Notes: generated by a model from the letters alone, not told the origin. A stretch of 64,000 nucleotides of DNA from Escherichia coli (GCF_013122565.1 NZ_CP053258.1); one strand, 5' to 3'. Counted from the stretch's first letter, positions 1 through 55,484 are shown. Numbers and translations: made by a program.

Positions 1-1109
1 GCGCGGGGATTGCCGCATTTCGTACTGGCAACGCTCCGGCTATTTTGCAGGTTTATGAAGTTGGCACCGCCACCATGATGGCATCCAAAGCCATTAAACC
101 GGTATATGACGTGTTTAAAGAGGCGGGGATTCAATTCGATGAGTCGCAGTTTGTGCCGACGGTTTCCGGTTACTACTCCGACAGCAAAACGGGCCACTTA
201 CTCTCCCAGCCGTTCAACAGCTCGACTCCCGTTCTCTATTACAACAAAGACGCCTTCAAGAAAGCGGGGTTAGACCCGGAACAGCCGCCGAAAACCTGGC
301 AGGATCTGGCGGACTATGCCGCAAAACTGAAAGCCTCCGGAATGAAGTGCGGCTACGCCAGCGGCTGGCAGGGCTGGATCCAACTGGAAAACTTTAGCGC
401 CTGGAACGGTCTGCCGTTTGCCAGCAAAAACAACGGCTTTGACGGCACGGATGCGGTGCTGGAGTTCAACAAGCCGGAGCAGGTGAAACACATCGCCATG
501 CTCGAAGAGATGAACAAGAAGGGCGATTTCAGCTACGTCGGGCGTAAGGATGAATCCACCGAGAAGTTCTATAACGGTGATTGCGCGATGACCACCGCCT
601 CTTCCGGTTCTCTCGCTAATATTCGTGAGTACGCCAAATTTAACTATGGCGTAGGCATGATGCCTTACGACGCCGATGCGAAAGATGCACCGCAAAACGC
701 CATTATCGGCGGGGCCAGCCTGTGGGTGATGCAGGGCAAAGATAAAGAAACGTATACCGGCGTGGCGAAGTTCCTCGACTTCCTCGCGAAGCCAGAAAAC
801 GCTGCCGAGTGGCATCAGAAAACCGGTTATCTGCCAATCACCAAAGCAGCGTATGACCTGACCCGTGAGCAGGGCTTTTATGAGAAAAACCCAGGGGCGG
901 ATACCGCGACGCGTCAGATGCTGAACAAGCCGCCGTTGCCGTTCACCAAAGGGCTGCGTCTGGGCAACATGCCGCAGACCCGCGTGATTGTGGATGAAGA
1001 GCTGGAGAGCGTGTGGACCGGTAAGAAGACACCACAGCAGGCACTGGATACCGCCGTTGAGCGTGGGAACCAGTTACTGCGCCGCTTTGAGCAGTCTACG
1101 AAGTCTTAA
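1..1109 (+). CDS. ugpB: sn-glycerol-3-phosphate ABC transporter periplasmic binding protein, 5'-truncated by the window edge
   Basis: ORF 45..1109 translation recognised as the UgpB C-terminal region; reading frame is open to the window start; followed by ugpAECQ. Confidence 0.9.
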
Positions 1110-1117
1110 TCAGTGTA

Positions 1118-1188
1118 ATGTCGGATGCGTTTCGCTTATCTGACCTGGCATCGCGTGTAGGCCGGATAAGCGAAGCGCATCCGGCACA
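1118..1188. repeat. REP/BIME-type palindromic repeats in the ugpB-ugpA intergenic region
   Basis: Inverted REP-like units seen directly, e.g. gccggataagcgaagcgcatccggca. Confidence 0.6.
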
Positions 1189-1206
1189 GTTCAGGAATTA
1201 ACCGTA

Positions 1207-2094
1207 ATGTCATCATCCCGTCCGGTGTTCCGCTCGCGCTGGCTGCCTTATCTGCTGGTCGCGCCGCAGCTCATCATCACCGTTATCTTTTTTATCTGGC
1301 CTGCGGGCGAAGCGTTGTGGTACTCGCTGCAAAGCGTCGATCCGTTTGGTTTCTCCAGCCAGTTTGTCGGCCTGGATAACTTCGTCGCGCTGTTTCATGA
1401 CAGCTACTATATCGACTCCTTCTGGACGACGATAAAATTCAGCACCTTTGTCACCGTCAGCGGTTTGCTGGTGTCACTGTTCTTCGCGGCGTTGGTGGAG
1501 TACATCGTGCGCGGCAGCCGTTTCTATCAAACCTTGATGCTGCTGCCGTATGCCGTGGCTCCCGCCGTTGCTGCCGTATTGTGGATCTTCCTGTTTAACC
1601 CCGGTCGCGGGCTGATCACCCATTTTCTCGCTGAGTTCGGCTACGACTGGAACCACGCGCAAAACAGCGGTCAGGCAATGTTTCTGGTGGTGTTTGCCTC
1701 GGTGTGGAAGCAAATCAGCTACAACTTTCTGTTCTTCTATGCCGCGCTGCACTCCATTCCCCGTTCGTTGATTGAAGCCGCAGCTATTGACGGCGCAGGG
1801 CCGATTCGCCGCTTCTTTAAGATTGCTCTGCCGCTTATCGCTCCGGTGAGTTTCTTCCTGCTGGTGGTGAACCTGGTGTACGCCTTCTTCGACACCTTCC
1901 CGGTGATCGACGCCGCCACGTCCGGCGGGCCGGTTCAGGCCACCACTACGCTGATTTATAAGATCTACCGCGAAGGCTTTACCGGACTGGATCTGGCTTC
2001 GTCTGCCGCGCAGTCGGTGGTGTTGATGTTCCTCGTCATCGTGCTGACGGTGGTGCAGTTCCGCTATGTTGAAAGCAAGGTGCGTTACCAATGA
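1207..2094 (+). CDS. ugpA: sn-glycerol-3-phosphate ABC transporter permease
   Basis: 295-aa polytopic membrane protein with the ABC permease EAA-type loop; position in the ugp operon. Confidence 0.92.
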
Positions 2095-2936
2095 TTGAGA
2101 ACCGTCCATGGCTGACAATATTCAGCCATACCATGCTGATCCTCGGGATCGCGGTGATCCTCTTCCCGCTGTACGTGGCGTTTGTCGCGGCGACGCTGGA
2201 TAAACAGGCCGTCTACGCCGCGCCGATGACGCTAATCCCCGGCACGCATCTGCTGGAAAACATCCACAACATCTGGGTAAACGGGGTAGGCACGAATAGT
2301 GCGCCGTTCTGGCGGATGTTACTTAACAGCTTCGTGATGGCGTTCAGCATCACGCTCGGCAAAATTACCGTCTCGATGCTCTCGGCATTTGCCATTGTCT
2401 GGTTTCGTTTTCCACTACGTAACCTCTTCTTCTGGATGATTTTTATCACCCTGATGTTGCCGGTTGAAGTACGTATCTTCCCGACGGTGGAAGTCATCGC
2501 CAACCTGAAGATGCTCGACAGCTACGCAGGTTTAACGCTGCCGCTGATGGCCTCGGCGACCGCGACGTTTCTTTTCCGCCAGTTCTTTATGACCCTACCG
2601 GATGAACTGGTGGAAGCCGCGCGGATCGACGGCGCGTCGCCAATGCGCTTCTTTTGCGACATCGTTTTTCCGTTGTCCAAAACTAATCTGGCGGCGTTGT
2701 TTGTGATCACCTTTATTTACGGCTGGAACCAGTATTTGTGGCCGTTGTTGATTATTACCGACGTGGATCTCGGCACCACCGTGGCAGGGATCAAAGGGAT
2801 GATCGCCACTGGCGAAGGCACCACAGAATGGAACTCGGTGATGGCTGCGATGTTGTTAACGCTGATCCCTCCGGTGGTGATTGTTTTAGTGATGCAGCGT
2901 GCCTTCGTGCGCGGCCTGGTCGATAGTGAGAAATAA
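2091..2936 (+). CDS. ugpE: sn-glycerol-3-phosphate ABC transporter permease
   Basis: 281-aa membrane permease; 4-nt overlap with ugpA. Confidence 0.92.
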
Positions 2937-2937
2937 G

Positions 2938-4008
2938 ATGGCAGGACTGAAATTACAGGCAGTAACCAAAAGCTGGGATGGCAAAACCCAGGTGATTAAA
3001 CCGCTGACCCTTGATGTGGCGGATGGCGAATTTATCGTGATGGTCGGGCCGTCTGGCTGCGGGAAATCGACGCTGCTGCGCATGGTTGCCGGGCTGGAGC
3101 GGGTGACCGAAGGCGATATCTGGATCGACCGCAAGCGTGTCACCGAAATGGAGCCGAAAGATCGCGGGATTGCGATGGTGTTCCAGAACTACGCGCTTTA
3201 TCCGCATATGAGTGTTGAAGAAAACATGGCGTGGGGGCTGAAAATTCGCGGCATGGGCAAGCAGCAAATTGCCGAACGGGTTAAAGAAGCGGCGCGTATT
3301 CTGGAGCTGGACGGCCTGCTCAAACGTCGCCCGCGCGAGCTATCTGGCGGTCAGCGCCAGCGTGTGGCGATGGGCCGCGCGATTGTGCGCGATCCGGCGG
3401 TGTTCTTGTTTGATGAGCCGCTCTCTAACCTCGATGCCAAGCTGCGCGTGCAGATGCGTCTTGAACTGCAACAGCTGCACCGTCGCCTGAAAACGACTTC
3501 ACTCTACGTTACTCATGATCAGGTTGAGGCGATGACGCTCGCCCAGCGAGTAATGGTGATGAACGGCGGCGTTGCCGAACAGATTGGCACGCCAGTGGAA
3601 GTTTACGAAAAGCCCGCCAGCCTGTTTGTAGCGAGTTTTATCGGCAGTCCGGCGATGAACCTGCTGACAGGCCGCGTGAATAATGAAGGCACGCATTTCG
3701 AACTGGACGGCGGTATTGTGCTGCCGCTAAACGGTGGCTACCGTCAGTATGCCGGGCGTAAAATGACTCTCGGCATTCGCCCGGAACATATAGCGCTAAG
3801 CTCGCAGGCAGAAGGTGGTGTGCCGCTGGTGATGGACACGCTGGAGATCCTCGGCGCTGATAACCTGGCGCACGGACGCTGGGGCGAACAGAAGCTGGTG
3901 GTACGGCTGGCGCATCAGGAGCGCCCGACGGCAGGCAGCACGCTGTGGCTGCATCTGGCGGAAAATCAGCTGCATCTTTTTGATGGTGAAACAGGACAAC
4001 GAGTATGA
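2938..4008 (+). CDS. ugpC: sn-glycerol-3-phosphate ABC transporter ATP-binding protein
   Basis: Walker [13 protein letters not shown] signature LSGGQRQR, Walker [11 protein letters not shown]. Start taken at MAGLKLQ (2938) rather than the longer ORF start 2899. Confidence 0.92.
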
Positions 4009-11662: not shown

Positions 11663-13003
11663 GTGACTACATTAACGCTTGTTTTAACAGCAGTAGGGTC
11701 TGTTTTACTGCTGCTGTTTTTAGTCATGAAGGCGCGTATGCACGCTTTCCTGGCTTTGATGGTGGTGTCCATGGGGGCTGGCCTTTTTTCCGGTATGCCG
11801 CTCGATAAAATCGCAGCGACGATGGAAAAAGGGATGGGAGGCACCCTCGGCTTCCTGGCGGTGGTTGTCGCCCTGGGAGCTATGTTTGGCAAGATCTTAC
11901 ATGAAACCGGCGCAGTCGATCAGATTGCCGTCAAAATGCTCAAATCCTTCGGTCACAGCCGCGCGCATTATGCCATCGGCCTTGCGGGGCTGGTCTGTGC
12001 GCTACCGCTGTTCTTTGAAGTGGCGATTGTTCTGCTGATTAGCGTTGCTTTCTCAATGGCGCGCCACACCGGTACGAACCTGGTGAAGCTGGTAATCCCA
12101 TTATTTGCAGGCGTGGCGGCAGCGGCTGCGTTCCTGGTGCCTGGACCAGCGCCAATGCTGCTGGCATCGCAGATGAACGCCGATTTTGGCTGGATGATCC
12201 TGATTGGCCTGTGTGCGGCAATTCCGGGAATGATTATTGCTGGGCCGCTGTGGGGTAACTTTATCAGCCGTTACGTTGAGCTGCATATTCCTGACGACAT
12301 CAGCGAACCGCATCTCGGCGAAGGCAAAATGCCATCTTTCGGATTCAGCCTGTCGCTGATCCTGTTGCCGCTGGTGCTGGTGGGGCTGAAAACCATTGCC
12401 GCGCGTTTTGTGCCAGAAGGCTCTACCGCTTACGAATGGTTCGAGTTTATTGGTCATCCGTTTACCGCGATTCTGGTTGCTTGTCTGGTGGCGATTTACG
12501 GTCTGGCAATGCGTCAGGGCATGCCAAAAGACAAAGTGATGGAGATTTGCGGTCACGCGCTGCAACCGGCGGGGATCATTCTGCTGGTGATTGGTGCAGG
12601 CGGCGTGTTCAAACAGGTGCTGGTTGACTCTGGCGTAGGTCCGGCACTCGGCGAAGCGTTAACCGGCATGGGCCTGCCGATTGCCATCACCTGCTTCGTG
12701 CTGGCAGCGGCGGTGCGCATCATTCAGGGGTCTGCCACCGTTGCCTGCTTAACGGCGGTAGGACTGGTAATGCCGGTCATTGAACAACTGAACTACTCCG
12801 GTGCGCAAATGGCGGCGCTGTCGATTTGTATCGCCGGTGGTTCGATTGTTGTCAGCCACGTTAACGACGCTGGTTTCTGGTTGTTCGGTAAATTTACCGG
12901 CGCGACCGAAGCCGAAACGCTGAAAACCTGGACCATGATGGAAACCATCCTCGGCACTGTCGGTGCCATCGTTGGGATGATTGCGTTCCAGCTGTTGAGT
13001 TAA
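11663..13003 (+). CDS. gntU: low-affinity gluconate:H+ symporter (GntP family)
   Basis: 446-aa polytopic GntP-family transporter; apparent GTG start at 11663, 4 nt after the gntK stop. Confidence 0.9.
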   Translation: MTTLTLVLTAVGSVLLLLFLVMKARMHAFLALMVVSMGAGLFSGMPLDKIAATMEKGMGGTLGFLAVVVALGAMFGKILHETGAVDQIAVKMLKSFGHSRAHYAIGLAGLVCALPLFFEVAIVLLISVAFSMARHTGTNLVKLVIPLFAGVAAAAAFLVPGPAPMLLASQMNADFGWMILIGLCAAIPGMIIAGPLWGNFISRYVELHIPDDISEPHLGEGKMPSFGFSLSLILLPLVLVGLKTIAARFVPEGSTAYEWFEFIGHPFTAILVACLVAIYGLAMRQGMPKDKVMEICGHALQPAGIILLVIGAGGVFKQVLVDSGVGPALGEALTGMGLPIAITCFVLAAAVRIIQGSATVACLTAVGLVMPVIEQLNYSGAQMAALSICIAGGSIVVSHVNDAGFWLFGKFTGATEAETLKTWTMMETILGTVGAIVGMIAFQLLS

Positions 13004-13015
13004 TTACTGCGACAA

Positions 13016-13050
13016 ATTACTGCGAGCTTGCTCGCAGTAATTCATTTCTC
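13016..13050 (+). terminator. perfect palindromic hairpin after gntU
   Basis: aattactgcgagc-tt-gctcgcagtaatt followed by a T-rich tract; half-site also directly repeated at 13002-13012. Confidence 0.6.
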
Positions 13051-13142
13051 TTTTCTCCTCTCTTCATCTTTTTGATCTCTCTCGCAAATTTACCTGCTAA
13101 TAATCCGTTCTAATCACTGCCTAAAGATCGCAGGAGATAAAG

Positions 13143-15239
13143 ATGGAAAAGCACGGAGCTGAATTGCTTTTACAGCGGATGTTAGGCAATACCACCGCTA
13201 CTTTCAGGGAAGGTCAATGGGAAGCCATGGACGCGGTGGTGAACCGACGGCGAAAACTGCTGGTTGTCCAACGCACTGGCTGGGGGAAAAGCGCCGTGTA
13301 CTTCATCTCCAGTAAAATCTTCCGCGATCGCGGCGCTGGCCCGACAATTATCATCTCTCCTTTGCTTGCCCTGATGCGTAACCAGGTTGCCGCCGCTGAA
13401 CGGTTAGGTATTACGGCTGAAACGTTGAATTCTACAAACAGGGAAGAATGGCAGCGCATTAGCGATAAGTTGCTGCAAGGTGCGGTCGATTGCTTGCTGG
13501 TTTCCCCGGAACGTTTGGCAAACCAGGACTTTATCGAAACGGTTTTATATCCTATAGCCGATCGTATTGGTTTGCTTGTGGTCGACGAGGCGCACTGCAT
13601 CTCTGATTGGGGCCACGATTTTCGCCCGGATTACCGACGTATATTAGATATTTTGCGCCAACTGCCTGCGAATACCCCTGTTCTGGGTACAACCGCGACA
13701 GCGAATAACCGTGTCGTTGAGGATATCCGTCAGCAATTGGGTGACATTGTGATTCAGCGTGGAACGCTGGCTCGCGAAAGTTTGGCGCTTGATGCCTTAG
13801 TCTTAGGTGAACAGTCATCCCGTCTGGCATGGTTAGCAACGGTTATCCCTCAGTTTTCCAAATCGGGAATTGTTTATACCCTGACTACTCGCGATGCCGA
13901 ACTTGTCGCCGAGTGGTTAAGGACAAATGGTATCAGTGCATTTGCTTACTACAGCGGCGTGACTTGTGAAGGCGCGGAAGATTCTAATACTGCCAGGGAA
14001 TATCTGGAGCAGGCGCTGCTGGCAAATAAAATCAAAGTGCTGGTCGCGACGACGGCATTAGGTATGGGGTTTGATAAACCTGATTTAGGTTTCGTCATTC
14101 ATTATCAAATGCCGGGGTCTATTGTCGGTTACTACCAACAGGTAGGGCGTGCCGGGCGTGCTATAGATTCCGCTGTTGGCATATTGCTTTGTGGTGGTGA
14201 AGACCGCGCTATTCATAAATTCTTCCGTGAAAGCGCCTTTCCTGCGGAGGCGCAAATTCATGAAATACTCAACGTACTTAGCGAGAATGACGGTCTTACC
14301 CTACGAGGCATTGAACAACGGACGAATCTCCGTTATGGGCAAATAGAAAAAGCACTGAAATTATTGGTAGCTGAAAATCCATCGCCTGTGGTGTATACCG
14401 AGAAATTATGGCGCAGAACTATCGTCAGTTTCTCTCCTGACCATGAACGAATTAACCATTTGATGAATCAGAGAAAAAGTGAGCTGGCAGACGTTGAAAG
14501 CTATGTCACGACCAAGGAGTGCAAAATGCAATTTCTGCGCCGCGCACTCGATGAGCCAAGTGCCGAACGTTGTGGTAAATGTAGCAGTTGTCTTCAGCAT
14601 CCGTTGTTGTCGCCCGATATTGATAGCGGCTTACTCCATGCGGCAAATTTATTTATTAAACACGCTGACCTGCCATTAAATCTCAATAAACAGGTAGCAT
14701 CTGGGGCTTTTACGCAATACGGATTTAAAGGGAACTTGCCTGCGGGTTTACAAGGATCTACGGGGCGAGTCCTTTCTCGTTGGGGAGATTCCGGGTGGGG
14801 AAAGCAGGTAGCACAGGAGAAAAAAACGGGGCGATTCAGTGATGAGCTGGTGGAGGCATGTGCGGAAATGGTTCGCCAACGCTGGAATCCGCATCCTGAA
14901 CCAACCTGGGTATGCTGCGTTCCTTCATTAAGGCACCTCGACCTGGTTCCTAATTTTGCCCGGCGACTGGCGGCGAAACTTGGCTTACCTTTTATTGATG
15001 CCATTGAAAAAGTCGTGGACAATCCACCGCAGAAAATGCAGCAAAACCGTTTTCACCAGTGTCAAAATCTCGACGGGGCGTTTGTGATTACCCCTCCTTT
15101 GATGCCAGGTCCGGCGTTGCTGGTTGACGATATCGTGGATTCTGCATGGACGCTGACAGTTCTGACAGCACTGTTACGCCAGGCAGGTTGCCCGACGGTT
15201 TATCCTCTTGCCCTTGCTTCTACCTCGGTAAAAAATTGA
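13143..15239 (+). CDS. RecQ-family superfamily-2 DNA helicase fused to a C-terminal ComF/GntX-like phosphoribosyltransferase-like domain
   Basis: 698 aa. Walker A QRTGWGKS (aa 43-50); DEAH box VVDEAHCISDWGHDFRPDY (nt 13584-13595); motif III TATA; motif VI QQVGRAGR; Cys cluster ERCGKCSSC; C-terminal LLVDDIVDSAWTLTVLTALL resembles the PRPP-binding loop of PRTases (compare GntX VIVDDVVTTGSTVAEIAQLL in this window). Confidence 0.75.
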   Translation: MEKHGAELLLQRMLGNTTATFREGQWEAMDAVVNRRRKLLVVQRTGWGKSAVYFISSKIFRDRGAGPTIIISPLLALMRNQVAAAERLGITAETLNSTNREEWQRISDKLLQGAVDCLLVSPERLANQDFIETVLYPIADRIGLLVVDEAHCISDWGHDFRPDYRRILDILRQLPANTPVLGTTATANNRVVEDIRQQLGDIVIQRGTLARESLALDALVLGEQSSRLAWLATVIPQFSKSGIVYTLTTRDAELVAEWLRTNGISAFAYYSGVTCEGAEDSNTAREYLEQALLANKIKVLVATTALGMGFDKPDLGFVIHYQMPGSIVGYYQQVGRAGRAIDSAVGILLCGGEDRAIHKFFRESAFPAEAQIHEILNVLSENDGLTLRGIEQRTNLRYGQIEKALKLLVAENPSPVVYTEKLWRRTIVSFSPDHERINHLMNQRKSELADVESYVTTKECKMQFLRRALDEPSAERCGKCSSCLQHPLLSPDIDSGLLHAANLFIKHADLPLNLNKQVASGAFTQYGFKGNLPAGLQGSTGRVLSRWGDSGWGKQVAQEKKTGRFSDELVEACAEMVRQRWNPHPEPTWVCCVPSLRHLDLVPNFARRLAAKLGLPFIDAIEKVVDNPPQKMQQNRFHQCQNLDGAFVITPPLMPGPALLVDDIVDSAWTLTVLTALLRQAGCPTVYPLALASTSVKN

Positions 15240-16441
15240 TGAATCTTTCAGCCAATGCACAAGCAACTCTCCTGCTAACCAGCGATTTTTCTCGCGCGGC
15301 GGCGAGTGAGTATAACCCTCTTAGTAATAGTGAATGGGGGAAGTTTGCATTATGGCTGAAGCACCAACGTATCAGTCCCGCCGATCTTCTGGTGCCGCAA
15401 CCGCAAGAGAAACTTACAGGCTGGAGCGATCCGCGTATTTCTCAGGAGCGTATTCTTGGCTTGCTGGCGCGTGGTCATAGTCTGGCGTTGGCGGTAGATA
15501 AGTGGCAACGCGCCGGTTTATGGATCTTAACCCGCGGAGATGCCGATTATCCCGTTCGCTTGAAAAACCGATTGCGAACGGATGCACCTCCCGTTTTATT
15601 TGGCTGTGGGAATAAAGCATTACTGCAAGCGGAAGGTATGGCGATTGTTGGCTCGCGAGATGCTCCGACTGACGATTTGCGCTATACCCAACAACTGGCC
15701 GCGAAACTGGCCCAACAGGGGATTTGCGTTATCTCTGGTGGTGCGCGAGGTATTGATGAATGTGCAATGGCGTCGGCACTGGAGGCCGGGGGAACTGCCG
15801 TTGGCGTATTAGCTGATAGCTTGTTAAAAACGAGCACGTTAGTGAAATGGCGTGAAGGGCTTATAGCAGGCAACCTGGTGTTGATTTCGCCGTTTTACCC
15901 AGAGGTACGTTTCACTGTCGGCAATGCGATGGCGCGGAATAAATATATTTATTGCCTTGCTGAAAGCGCAATGGTTGTACGTGCGGGAATGTCCGGTGGA
16001 ACGATAACCGGGGCGATGGAAGCATTAAAACATCAGTGGCTGCCTGTGCAGGTTAAACCAAATCAGGATATGCAATCAGCCAATTCACGATTAGTAGAAA
16101 ATGGGGCGTCATGGAGTACTGAACAGGCTGAGAATGTGACGTTCAGACTGCCAGACGTTACTGGGCTGATTTATGACAAAGCACTCCGTAACGCTCAACC
16201 AGAACTGTTTTCGCTGCATGAAGATGACGCAAATTACGCAGTAATGCCCGCGCATACGCCTGTCGATTTTTATCAACTCTTTGTGGCGGAACTGGCGATC
16301 CTTGCAAAGGAATCGATAAGTATTGAAAGGCTGGCGTCTTGTACTGGTTTAACCATCGAACAAATTCGTGTGTGGCTGAACCGCGCAGAAGAAGAGGGAA
16401 GGGTTATTCGATTGGGCGAAGGTCATTATCAGTTCAGGTAA
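15239..16441 (+). CDS. DprA/Smf-like (SLOG Rossmann-fold) DNA-processing protein with a C-terminal winged-helix-like tail
   Basis: 400 aa from MNLSANAQ; ATG overlaps the helicase TGA (TGATG). DprA core motifs MAIVGSRDAP...GICVISGGARGIDECAMASALEAGG (nt ~15737-15757); C-terminal SIERLASCTGLTIEQIRVWLNRAEEEGRVIRL looks like a winged helix. Confidence 0.75.
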   Translation: MNLSANAQATLLLTSDFSRAAASEYNPLSNSEWGKFALWLKHQRISPADLLVPQPQEKLTGWSDPRISQERILGLLARGHSLALAVDKWQRAGLWILTRGDADYPVRLKNRLRTDAPPVLFGCGNKALLQAEGMAIVGSRDAPTDDLRYTQQLAAKLAQQGICVISGGARGIDECAMASALEAGGTAVGVLADSLLKTSTLVKWREGLIAGNLVLISPFYPEVRFTVGNAMARNKYIYCLAESAMVVRAGMSGGTITGAMEALKHQWLPVQVKPNQDMQSANSRLVENGASWSTEQAENVTFRLPDVTGLIYDKALRNAQPELFSLHEDDANYAVMPAHTPVDFYQLFVAELAILAKESISIERLASCTGLTIEQIRVWLNRAEEEGRVIRLGEGHYQFR

Positions 16442-16444
16442 TAA

Positions 16445-16481
16445 AACAGGTGCCGCGTCTGGTTGTGTGCAGCACCTGTTT
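16445..16481. terminator. bidirectional hairpin between the convergent DprA-like gene and yhgN
   Basis: Inverted repeat aacaggtgc...gcacctgtt lying between the two convergent stop codons. Confidence 0.55.
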
Positions 16482-16486
16482 GAACC

Positions 16487-17080
16487 TTACCCCTTCATCC
16501 ACATTCGAATGCCGTCGAGGAACATCTGGGTTGCCATCATCACCAGAATCAATCCCATCAGGCGTTCAAGTGCGTTCACCCCTTTCTCGCCCAGCAGACG
16601 TAAAAATAGCGAAGACTGTAGCAGGATGACAAAGGTGCCGCCCCAGGCCAGCAGCAGAGCAATCACCAGATGTCCCATCTGATTCGGGTACTGATGAGAC
16701 AACAACATCAGCGTGGCGAGAATAGTCGGCCCGGCGACTAACGGAATTGCCAACGGCACGATAAACGGCTCTTCACCTGCCGGAAGCCCGCTGCTATTTC
16801 CTGAAGCGCTGGGAAAAATCATCTTAATGGCGATCAGAAACAGAATGATGCCGCCAGAAATGGAGACGGTTTCTGCTCGCAGGCTGAGAAATGCCAGAAT
16901 TTTCTCACCCGCAAACAGGAACACCAGCATCACCAGGAGAGCAATAAGCAACTCTCGCACCATGATTGCCCGCCGTCTTTTCGGTTCAGTATGTTTCAGT
17001 ACGGACATGAAAATAGGTAGGTTTCCGAGCGGATCCATAATCAGGATCAATAAAACTGCTGCAGAAATGATTTCATTCAT
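16487..17080 (-). CDS. yhgN: MarC-family (UPF0056) inner membrane protein
   Basis: 197-aa polytopic membrane protein; conserved position upstream of asd. Confidence 0.88.
   Translation of the reverse strand: MNEIISAAVLLILIMDPLGNLPIFMSVLKHTEPKRRRAIMVRELLIALLVMLVFLFAGEKILAFLSLRAETVSISGGIILFLIAIKMIFPSASGNSSGLPAGEEPFIVPLAIPLVAGPTILATLMLLSHQYPNQMGHLVIALLLAWGGTFVILLQSSLFLRLLGEKGVNALERLMGLILVMMATQMFLDGIRMWMKG

Positions 17081-53992: not shown

Positions 53993-55484
<1,492 letters not shown>

Follow-up and report, generated by a model that had tools for sequence, protein, structure and literature searches.

A stretch of 64,000 nucleotides of Escherichia coli DNA (GCF_013122565.1, NZ_CP053258.1), called the window below, encodes a helicase whose last residues resemble the PRPP-binding loop of phosphoribosyltransferases (PRTs). 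The first-pass annotation of this DNA took the loop to be degenerate and did not recognise the fusion of such a domain to a helicase. The locus thus raises the question of what this protein is, whether its C-terminus adopts a PRT fold, and whether the loop has decayed. The best explanation, to which we assign a probability of roughly 0.88, is that the open reading frame is the E. coli orthologue of RqlH/PsyrT and that, together with the DprA-like gene rqlI/psyrA, it constitutes the published RqlHI/PsyrTA toxin-antitoxin and anti-phage module. The features of the locus are collected in Table 1.

Table 1. Features of the rqlHI/psyrTA locus and the gntX gene, with positions counted from the first nucleotide of the window.
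Feature	Position	Strand	Description
rqlHI/psyrTA accessory module	13004..16486		3.5 kb; fills the interval from the gntU stop codon to the yhgN stop codon exactly
Hairpin, terminator-like	13015..13042	+	12-bp stem, from consensus scan only; just past gntU, upstream of rqlH
rqlH/psyrT, probable toxin (RecQ-like helicase with C-terminal ComF-like PRT domain)	13143..15239	+	698 aa
SF2 helicase core	13209..14162	+	DEAD aa 23-194, Helicase_C aa 239-340; Walker A lysine K49, DEAH aspartate D148
RecQ-type four-cysteine zinc-binding module	14469..14594	+	C460, C477, C480, C483; Pfam RecQ_Zn_bind aa 443-484
ComF-like PRT domain (predicted fold)	14667..15236	+	aa 509-698; start as in the F11 RqlH of Russell & Mulvey (there aa 509-690)
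PRPP-loop strand and loop	15114..15155	+	A658-L671, ALLVDDIVDSAWTL; published mutations target D663-I-V-D666
rqlI/psyrA, probable DprA-like antitoxin	15239..16441	+	400 aa, counted from the ATG overlapping the rqlH stop codon
gntX, housekeeping ComF homologue, outside the rqlHI system	53993..54676	-	NF008616 E 7.6e-130, 431 bits against a cut-off of 304

A probable RqlHI/PsyrTA module

The rqlH product matches the PADLOC PsyrT profile PDLC03928 from end to end (E 0, 1062.9 bits; residues 3-697 on profile positions 5-687 of 689). It also scores 247 bits against the NCBIfam recQ_fam model TIGR00614 (cut-off 219.8), which places it among the RecQ-family SF2 ATPases. A Pfam search of the reading frame detects DEAD (6.2e-24), Helicase_C (8.2e-13) and RecQ_Zn_bind (i-E 1.1e-3), and it found no HRDC domain. 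Taken with the translation, these matches give the order DEAD, Helicase_C, linker, RecQ_Zn_bind and Pribosyltran. The linker separates the end of Helicase_C (aa 340) from the zinc module by about 100 aa, and the cysteines of the latter follow the pattern C-x16-C-x2-C-x2-C. The architecture is that of a RecQ-type 3'-5' helicase motor joined to a four-cysteine zinc module and a ComFC-like PRT domain, with a PRPP loop that is intact and family-specific.

Directly downstream of rqlH, on the same strand, lies a gene for a DprA-like partner, which completes the two-gene arrangement of RqlHI/PsyrTA; the rqlH stop and rqlI start codons overlap as TGATG. The rqlI product matches the PADLOC PsyrA profile PDLC03927 over its whole length (E 1.2e-200; residues 1-400 on profile positions 1-397 of 398), and more weakly ShosA (PADLOC, 7.4e-27); against the NCBIfam DprA model TIGR00732 it gives 1.5e-29. 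The E. coli F11 pair RqlH/RqlI, equivalent to PsyrT/PsyrA, has the same domain order, residue numbering and two-gene operon, and both window proteins are full-length profile matches. The coincidence of numbering with F11 RqlH extends to K49, D148 and D663-I-V-D666, and K49 and D148 are residues that have been mutated in earlier work (PMC3378886, PMC4670107).

RefSeq protein WP_000410859.1, a 'RecQ family ATP-dependent DNA helicase', is 98% identical to window RqlH; the 11 of 698 residues that differ are allelic changes, and nothing of substance separates the window pair from the F11 system. RefSeq E. coli genomes annotate the pair under that name and as 'DNA-processing protein DprA'. These names conceal the RqlHI/PsyrTA identity of the pair, and the assignment made here is consequently of value for annotation.

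The start of rqlI is ambiguous. RefSeq/PGAP uses an in-frame ATG at 15146, upstream of the ATG at 15239, which produces a 94-nt overlap with rqlH that takes in the codons of the PRPP loop. In PADLOC, the PsyrA profile (398 positions) aligns from residue 1 of the product that begins at 15239.

Two PADLOC models labelled 'DpdF', PDLC02869 (74 positions, E 1.3e-54) and PDLC02866 (255 positions), match only the PRT C-domain of RqlH (aa 462-698). They were apparently built from RqlH-like C-terminal fragments and could mislabel PsyrT-type proteins as Dpd components.

Earlier descriptions of RqlH and RqlI

In the RqlH protein of M. smegmatis, a RecQ-like ATPase is followed by a linker, a zinc domain with four cysteines and, at the C-terminus, a ComF-like domain with phosphoribosyltransferase motifs (Ordonez, Unciuleac & Shuman 2012, PMC3378886). 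This protein is only distantly orthologous to window RqlH, with which it shares the RecQ-like ATPase, the RqlH-specific linker, the four-cysteine zinc module, the lack of HRDC, the ComF-like PRT domain and a comparable length (691 vs 698 aa); biochemistry has been done on the mycobacterial protein only. The 3'-5' helicase activity of this orthologue resides in its N-terminal 505 residues, and its C-domain is dispensable for both ATPase and helicase activity (PMC3378886).

Genetic work on the rqlHI operon of E. coli F11 has found that RqlH alone causes SOS induction, filamentation and mutagenesis (Russell & Mulvey 2015, PMC4670107). Toxicity is abolished by deletion of the PRTase domain (aa 509-690) and by the DIVD663EVME or D663A changes, and the PRT domain by itself is not toxic. 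RqlI neutralises RqlH and co-immunoprecipitates with the full-length protein and not with RqlH 1-509. Many bacteria, especially Gram-positives, have rqlH without rqlI (PMC4670107).

A survey of phage-defence systems (Millman et al. 2022 preprint, 10.1101/2022.05.11.491447) includes PsyrTA, 'also called RqlHI', describes its toxin as bearing a PRTase domain, and credits the toxin-antitoxin system to Sberro et al. 2013. The fusion of a PRTase to an SFII helicase, coupled to DprA, was also noted by Iyer et al. (PMC5512222). One study could detect no protection by a native E. coli PsyrTA with the phages that it used (10.1101/2024.12.20.629700). From 2022 onward, the literature that we found on PsyrTA mechanism consists of surveys and mentions, with no mechanistic study among them, and our search returned no biochemical data on the RqlH PRT domain (PRPP binding, transfer or ligand).

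The fusion is therefore not new, because RqlH/PsyrT was published in 2012 (PMC3378886), with E. coli genetics in 2015 (PMC4670107) and as PsyrTA in 2022 (10.1101/2022.05.11.491447), and the first-pass description of it as unrecognised has to be set aside. The helicase-ComF/PRT fusion, the genotoxicity that depends on the same motif, the DprA-like antidote and the defence role are all already in print, and none of them is a new discovery of this analysis.

A PRT fold related to ComFC

Translation of the positive strand at 15114-15236 gives exactly ALLVDDIVDSAWTLTVLTALLRQAGCPTVYPLALASTSVKN, with which the 698-aa reading frame ends, and GntX of the same window carries MVIVDDVVTTGSTVAEIAQLLL. BLASTP of RqlH aa 501-698 against this GntX aligns 76 residues (E 1e-5), including an upstream N-R-x5-N-L-x2-A-F motif. 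Homologues of RqlH residues 501-698 were collected (275 matches), and 46 of them were aligned with the query as alignment A1 (47 sequences). When the A1 profile is compared with GntX by hhalign, the probability is 93.7% (E 1.9e-7) over 69 columns that again include N-R-x5-N-L-x2-A-F upstream of the loop. Pfam PF00156, which stands for the type I PRT superfamily, matches the isolated C-domain with an i-E of 9.5e-4 and the full protein more weakly (0.0084), and 42 of the 47 sequences in A1 match it at E<=0.001, the best at 1.3e-09.

Profile and structure searches were required here because searches of PDB sequences with the single C-domain sequence gave marginal matches only (phmmer, E 0.24). 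The A1 profile retrieves PRPP synthetases from the PDB sequences (E 2.7e-4). An AlphaFold2 model built on A1 is of high confidence, with a pLDDT of 89.4 and a pTM of 0.87, and the best 50 PDB matches in Foldseek are all PRT-family proteins. The similarity to GntX and to PRTs that was first noticed by eye is thus upheld by pairwise alignment, profile comparison and structure prediction alike. As modelled, the RqlH C-terminus is a PRT-fold domain that stands nearer to ComF/GntX than to other solved PRT proteins and has ComFC as its best structural match.

The C-domain falls below the ComF/GntX family cut-offs, scoring 11.5 bits against TIGR00201 comF (cut-off 233.55) and 15.6 against NF008616 GntX (cut-off 304). 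Across ComF proteins, a PPi-loop motif of the R-G-F-N-Q type is conserved after the first core strand. GntX has VPLWQRRHWRRGFNQ; the equivalent stretch of the RqlH C-domain, which lies outside the hhalign alignment, reads CVPSLRHLDLVPNF, without RGFNQ. The PPi-loop region of RqlH, CVPSLRHLDLVP, aligned to no reference. It does not contain the RGFNQ motif of window GntX; therefore, the geometry of PRPP binding is not to be assumed. In the model, aa 639-641 are of low confidence (pLDDT below 50) and occupy the expected position of a flexible loop.

Between the zinc module and the PRT core, aa 501-560 (window 14643..14820) contain a strongly conserved G-R-x-L-S-x-W-x4-W-G stretch in which G541, L544, W547, W552 and G553 are invariant. 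This stretch forms the 'hood' strands of the model and may be family-specific; the RqlH literature that we consulted does not discuss the motif.

The PRPP loop

The PRPP-loop strand of the window protein reads LLVDDIVDSAWT. The 47 sequences of A1 show no variation at D662, D666, S667 and W669, and conservation of at least 90% at D663 and T670. A recognisable motif is present in 116 homologues, of which 115 have DD as the acidic pair; the loop residues are DSGWT in 70, DSAWT in 30, DSRWT in 12 and singletons in the other four. The window allele therefore has Ala where most homologues have Gly, and it shares this Ala with the 30 DSAWT proteins. The family consensus D-S-G-W-T (VDDxVDS[G/A/R]WT) fits the canonical D/T-[ST]-[GA]-x-T pattern. 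PRPP synthetase loops in the A1-profile alignments read DDIIDTAGT in B. subtilis and DDMIDTGGT in another PRPP synthetase, and the Ala of the E. coli DSAWT has its direct counterpart in the former. A reading of DSAWT as a degenerate substitute for TTG(A/S)T does not survive this comparison, since DSxWT is conserved as a family feature in nearly all of the 116 homologues and matches the PRPP-synthetase pattern.

In the loop of H. pylori ComFC (DDIITTGTTL), the residue aligned with T670 is T165. Replacement of that threonine by alanine (T165A) abolishes nucleotide binding in ComFC (PMC9005727).

Comparison with ComFC and ShosT

RqlH shares with ComFC, ComF and GntX (H. pylori ComFC structure 7P0H, PMC9005727) the N-R...N-L-x2-A-F motif and the DD PRPP loop. 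Like ComFC, it has a DprA-type partner and a zinc module that immediately precedes the hood/PRT domain. The ligands of ComFC include PRPP, nucleotides and ssDNA, and the C. jejuni and S. pneumoniae ComFC proteins interact with DprA (PMC9005727). RqlH differs from ComFC and GntX in that its loop is D-S-[GAR]-W-T rather than T-T-G-x-T, RGFNQ is absent, and the zinc module is of the RecQ type. It is also fused to a helicase and toxic, and it scores below the ComF/GntX family cut-offs.

The ShosT/ShosA system (PDB 8ZVB/8ZVD; PMC11961720, PMC12961424) offers a second comparison. ShosT has an N-terminal pyrophosphatase-fold domain where RqlH has a helicase, and at the sequence level the C-domain of RqlH does not match models of ShosT. 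ShosA need not bind ShosT directly to neutralise it (PMC12961424), whereas RqlI and RqlH are recovered together by co-immunoprecipitation (PMC4670107). The toxicity of ShosT depends on its binding of PRPP (PMC11961720, PMC12961424); the protein showed no PRTase activity on four common purines (PMC11961720).

Possible functions of the PRT domain

If the module works as its domains suggest, then the helicase would bring the PRT module of RqlH to ssDNA, and the PRT module could bind PRPP or a nucleotide there through its DD/DSxWT site. It might then modify DNA or a DNA-linked substrate, or it might disturb DNA metabolism. The DprA-like RqlI would restrain RqlH until phage infection upsets the balance between them.

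Across the family there is little or no variation in the DD pair that binds Mg/ribose or in the 5-phosphate loop D-S-x-W-T, which argues for retained ligand binding. Toxicity is lost with even the conservative DIVD to EVME change (PMC4670107). Neither observation separates binding from catalysis. These observations, together with a loop that is not degenerate relative to PRPP synthetases, weigh against the idea that the PRT domain is non-catalytic, a retargeted ComFC-like module for binding ssDNA or nucleotides or for docking a partner, whose toxicity would come from binding and not from phosphoribosyl transfer. We nevertheless regard this idea as a serious contender, if one with somewhat less than an even chance of being correct. 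ComFC, the best structural match, binds ssDNA as well as PRPP and NMPs and has no demonstrated transferase activity (PMC9005727), and ShosT binds PRPP yet showed no PRTase activity on common purines (PMC11961720). The RqlH PRT domain is non-toxic on its own and is the site of RqlI binding (PMC4670107), and its PPi-loop region is divergent, without RGFNQ.

A more specific proposal is tentative and, in our judgement, rather unlikely to be right as it stands. The RqlH PRT would derive from ComFC and have given up nucleotide synthesis, and it would either act on DNA itself, for example by phosphoribosylating ssDNA bases exposed by its own helicase, or serve as a PRPP/nucleotide sensor gating the helicase-DprA complex. 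The underlying idea was already raised with the Fig 10 model of PMC4670107, and the evidence for it goes no further than an intact ligand-binding loop and ComFC as the closest fold match. If it is true, either version would connect an anti-phage mechanism with the PRT domain of the competence protein ComFC, which is itself unexplained. The question of ligand and transfer is one that the PRT domains of RqlH, ComFC and ShosT have in common.

It is improbable that the pair is instead an accessory of DNA uptake or recombination, a fused analogue of the ComFA helicase and ComFC acting with DprA, and not a toxin-antitoxin or defence module. The parallel between a helicase with a ComF-like PRT and DprA-like partner and the ComF/DprA proteins has been discussed, explicitly so by the authors of the F11 study (PMC4670107, PMC5512222), and the ComFC-DprA interaction is known (PMC9005727). 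However, the window already encodes GntX as a housekeeping ComF homologue, a canonical DprA exists in E. coli, and the F11 authors detected no natural transformation (PMC4670107). The module is moreover an accessory insertion in only 30% of genomes, the RqlH C-domain misses the ComF family cut-off, and both toxin-antitoxin behaviour and phage defence have been reported (PMC4670107; 10.1101/2022.05.11.491447). A chance resemblance, in which a generic hydrophobic beta-strand happens to precede an acidic loop, would suit the weak single-sequence signals from PF00156 on the full protein and from phmmer, but it is refuted by the hhalign and structure matches, which agree with each other and align 69-157 residues, extending beyond the loop.

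Distribution and allelic variation

Of 5426 complete E. coli genomes, 1650 (30%) carry the rqlHI module, which is chromosomal in every case. In E. coli genomes that do not have it, homology to the window ends at 13003 and restarts at 16487. The module takes the place of the entire gntU-yhgN intergenic region, and O157:H7 strains are among its carriers.

A hairpin with a perfect 12-bp stem, AATTACTGCGAG-CTTG-CTCGCAGTAATT, lies 12 nt past the gntU stop codon, within island-specific sequence. From its sequence, this hairpin is predicted to be a terminator that may end gntU transcription and so insulate rqlHI. A promoter scan of the island, which we deem uninformative, gave no sigma-70 consensus site upstream of rqlH.

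The tryptophan at the x-position of the Walker A motif (TG-x-GKS; W47) was suspected of being a private and possibly inactivating change because a 58-nt probe had no perfect match in any complete E. coli genome. This suspicion was rejected; the TGG codon for W47 is also present in strain 88-3493, one of 597 genomes with a 95-99% identical match to the probe, and the sole probe mismatch falls in the codon for Ser50 and is synonymous. Codon 47 (window 13281..13283) is the site of an R47/W47 polymorphism, with TGG (Trp) in the window and in 88-3493 and AGG (Arg) in LHM10-1.
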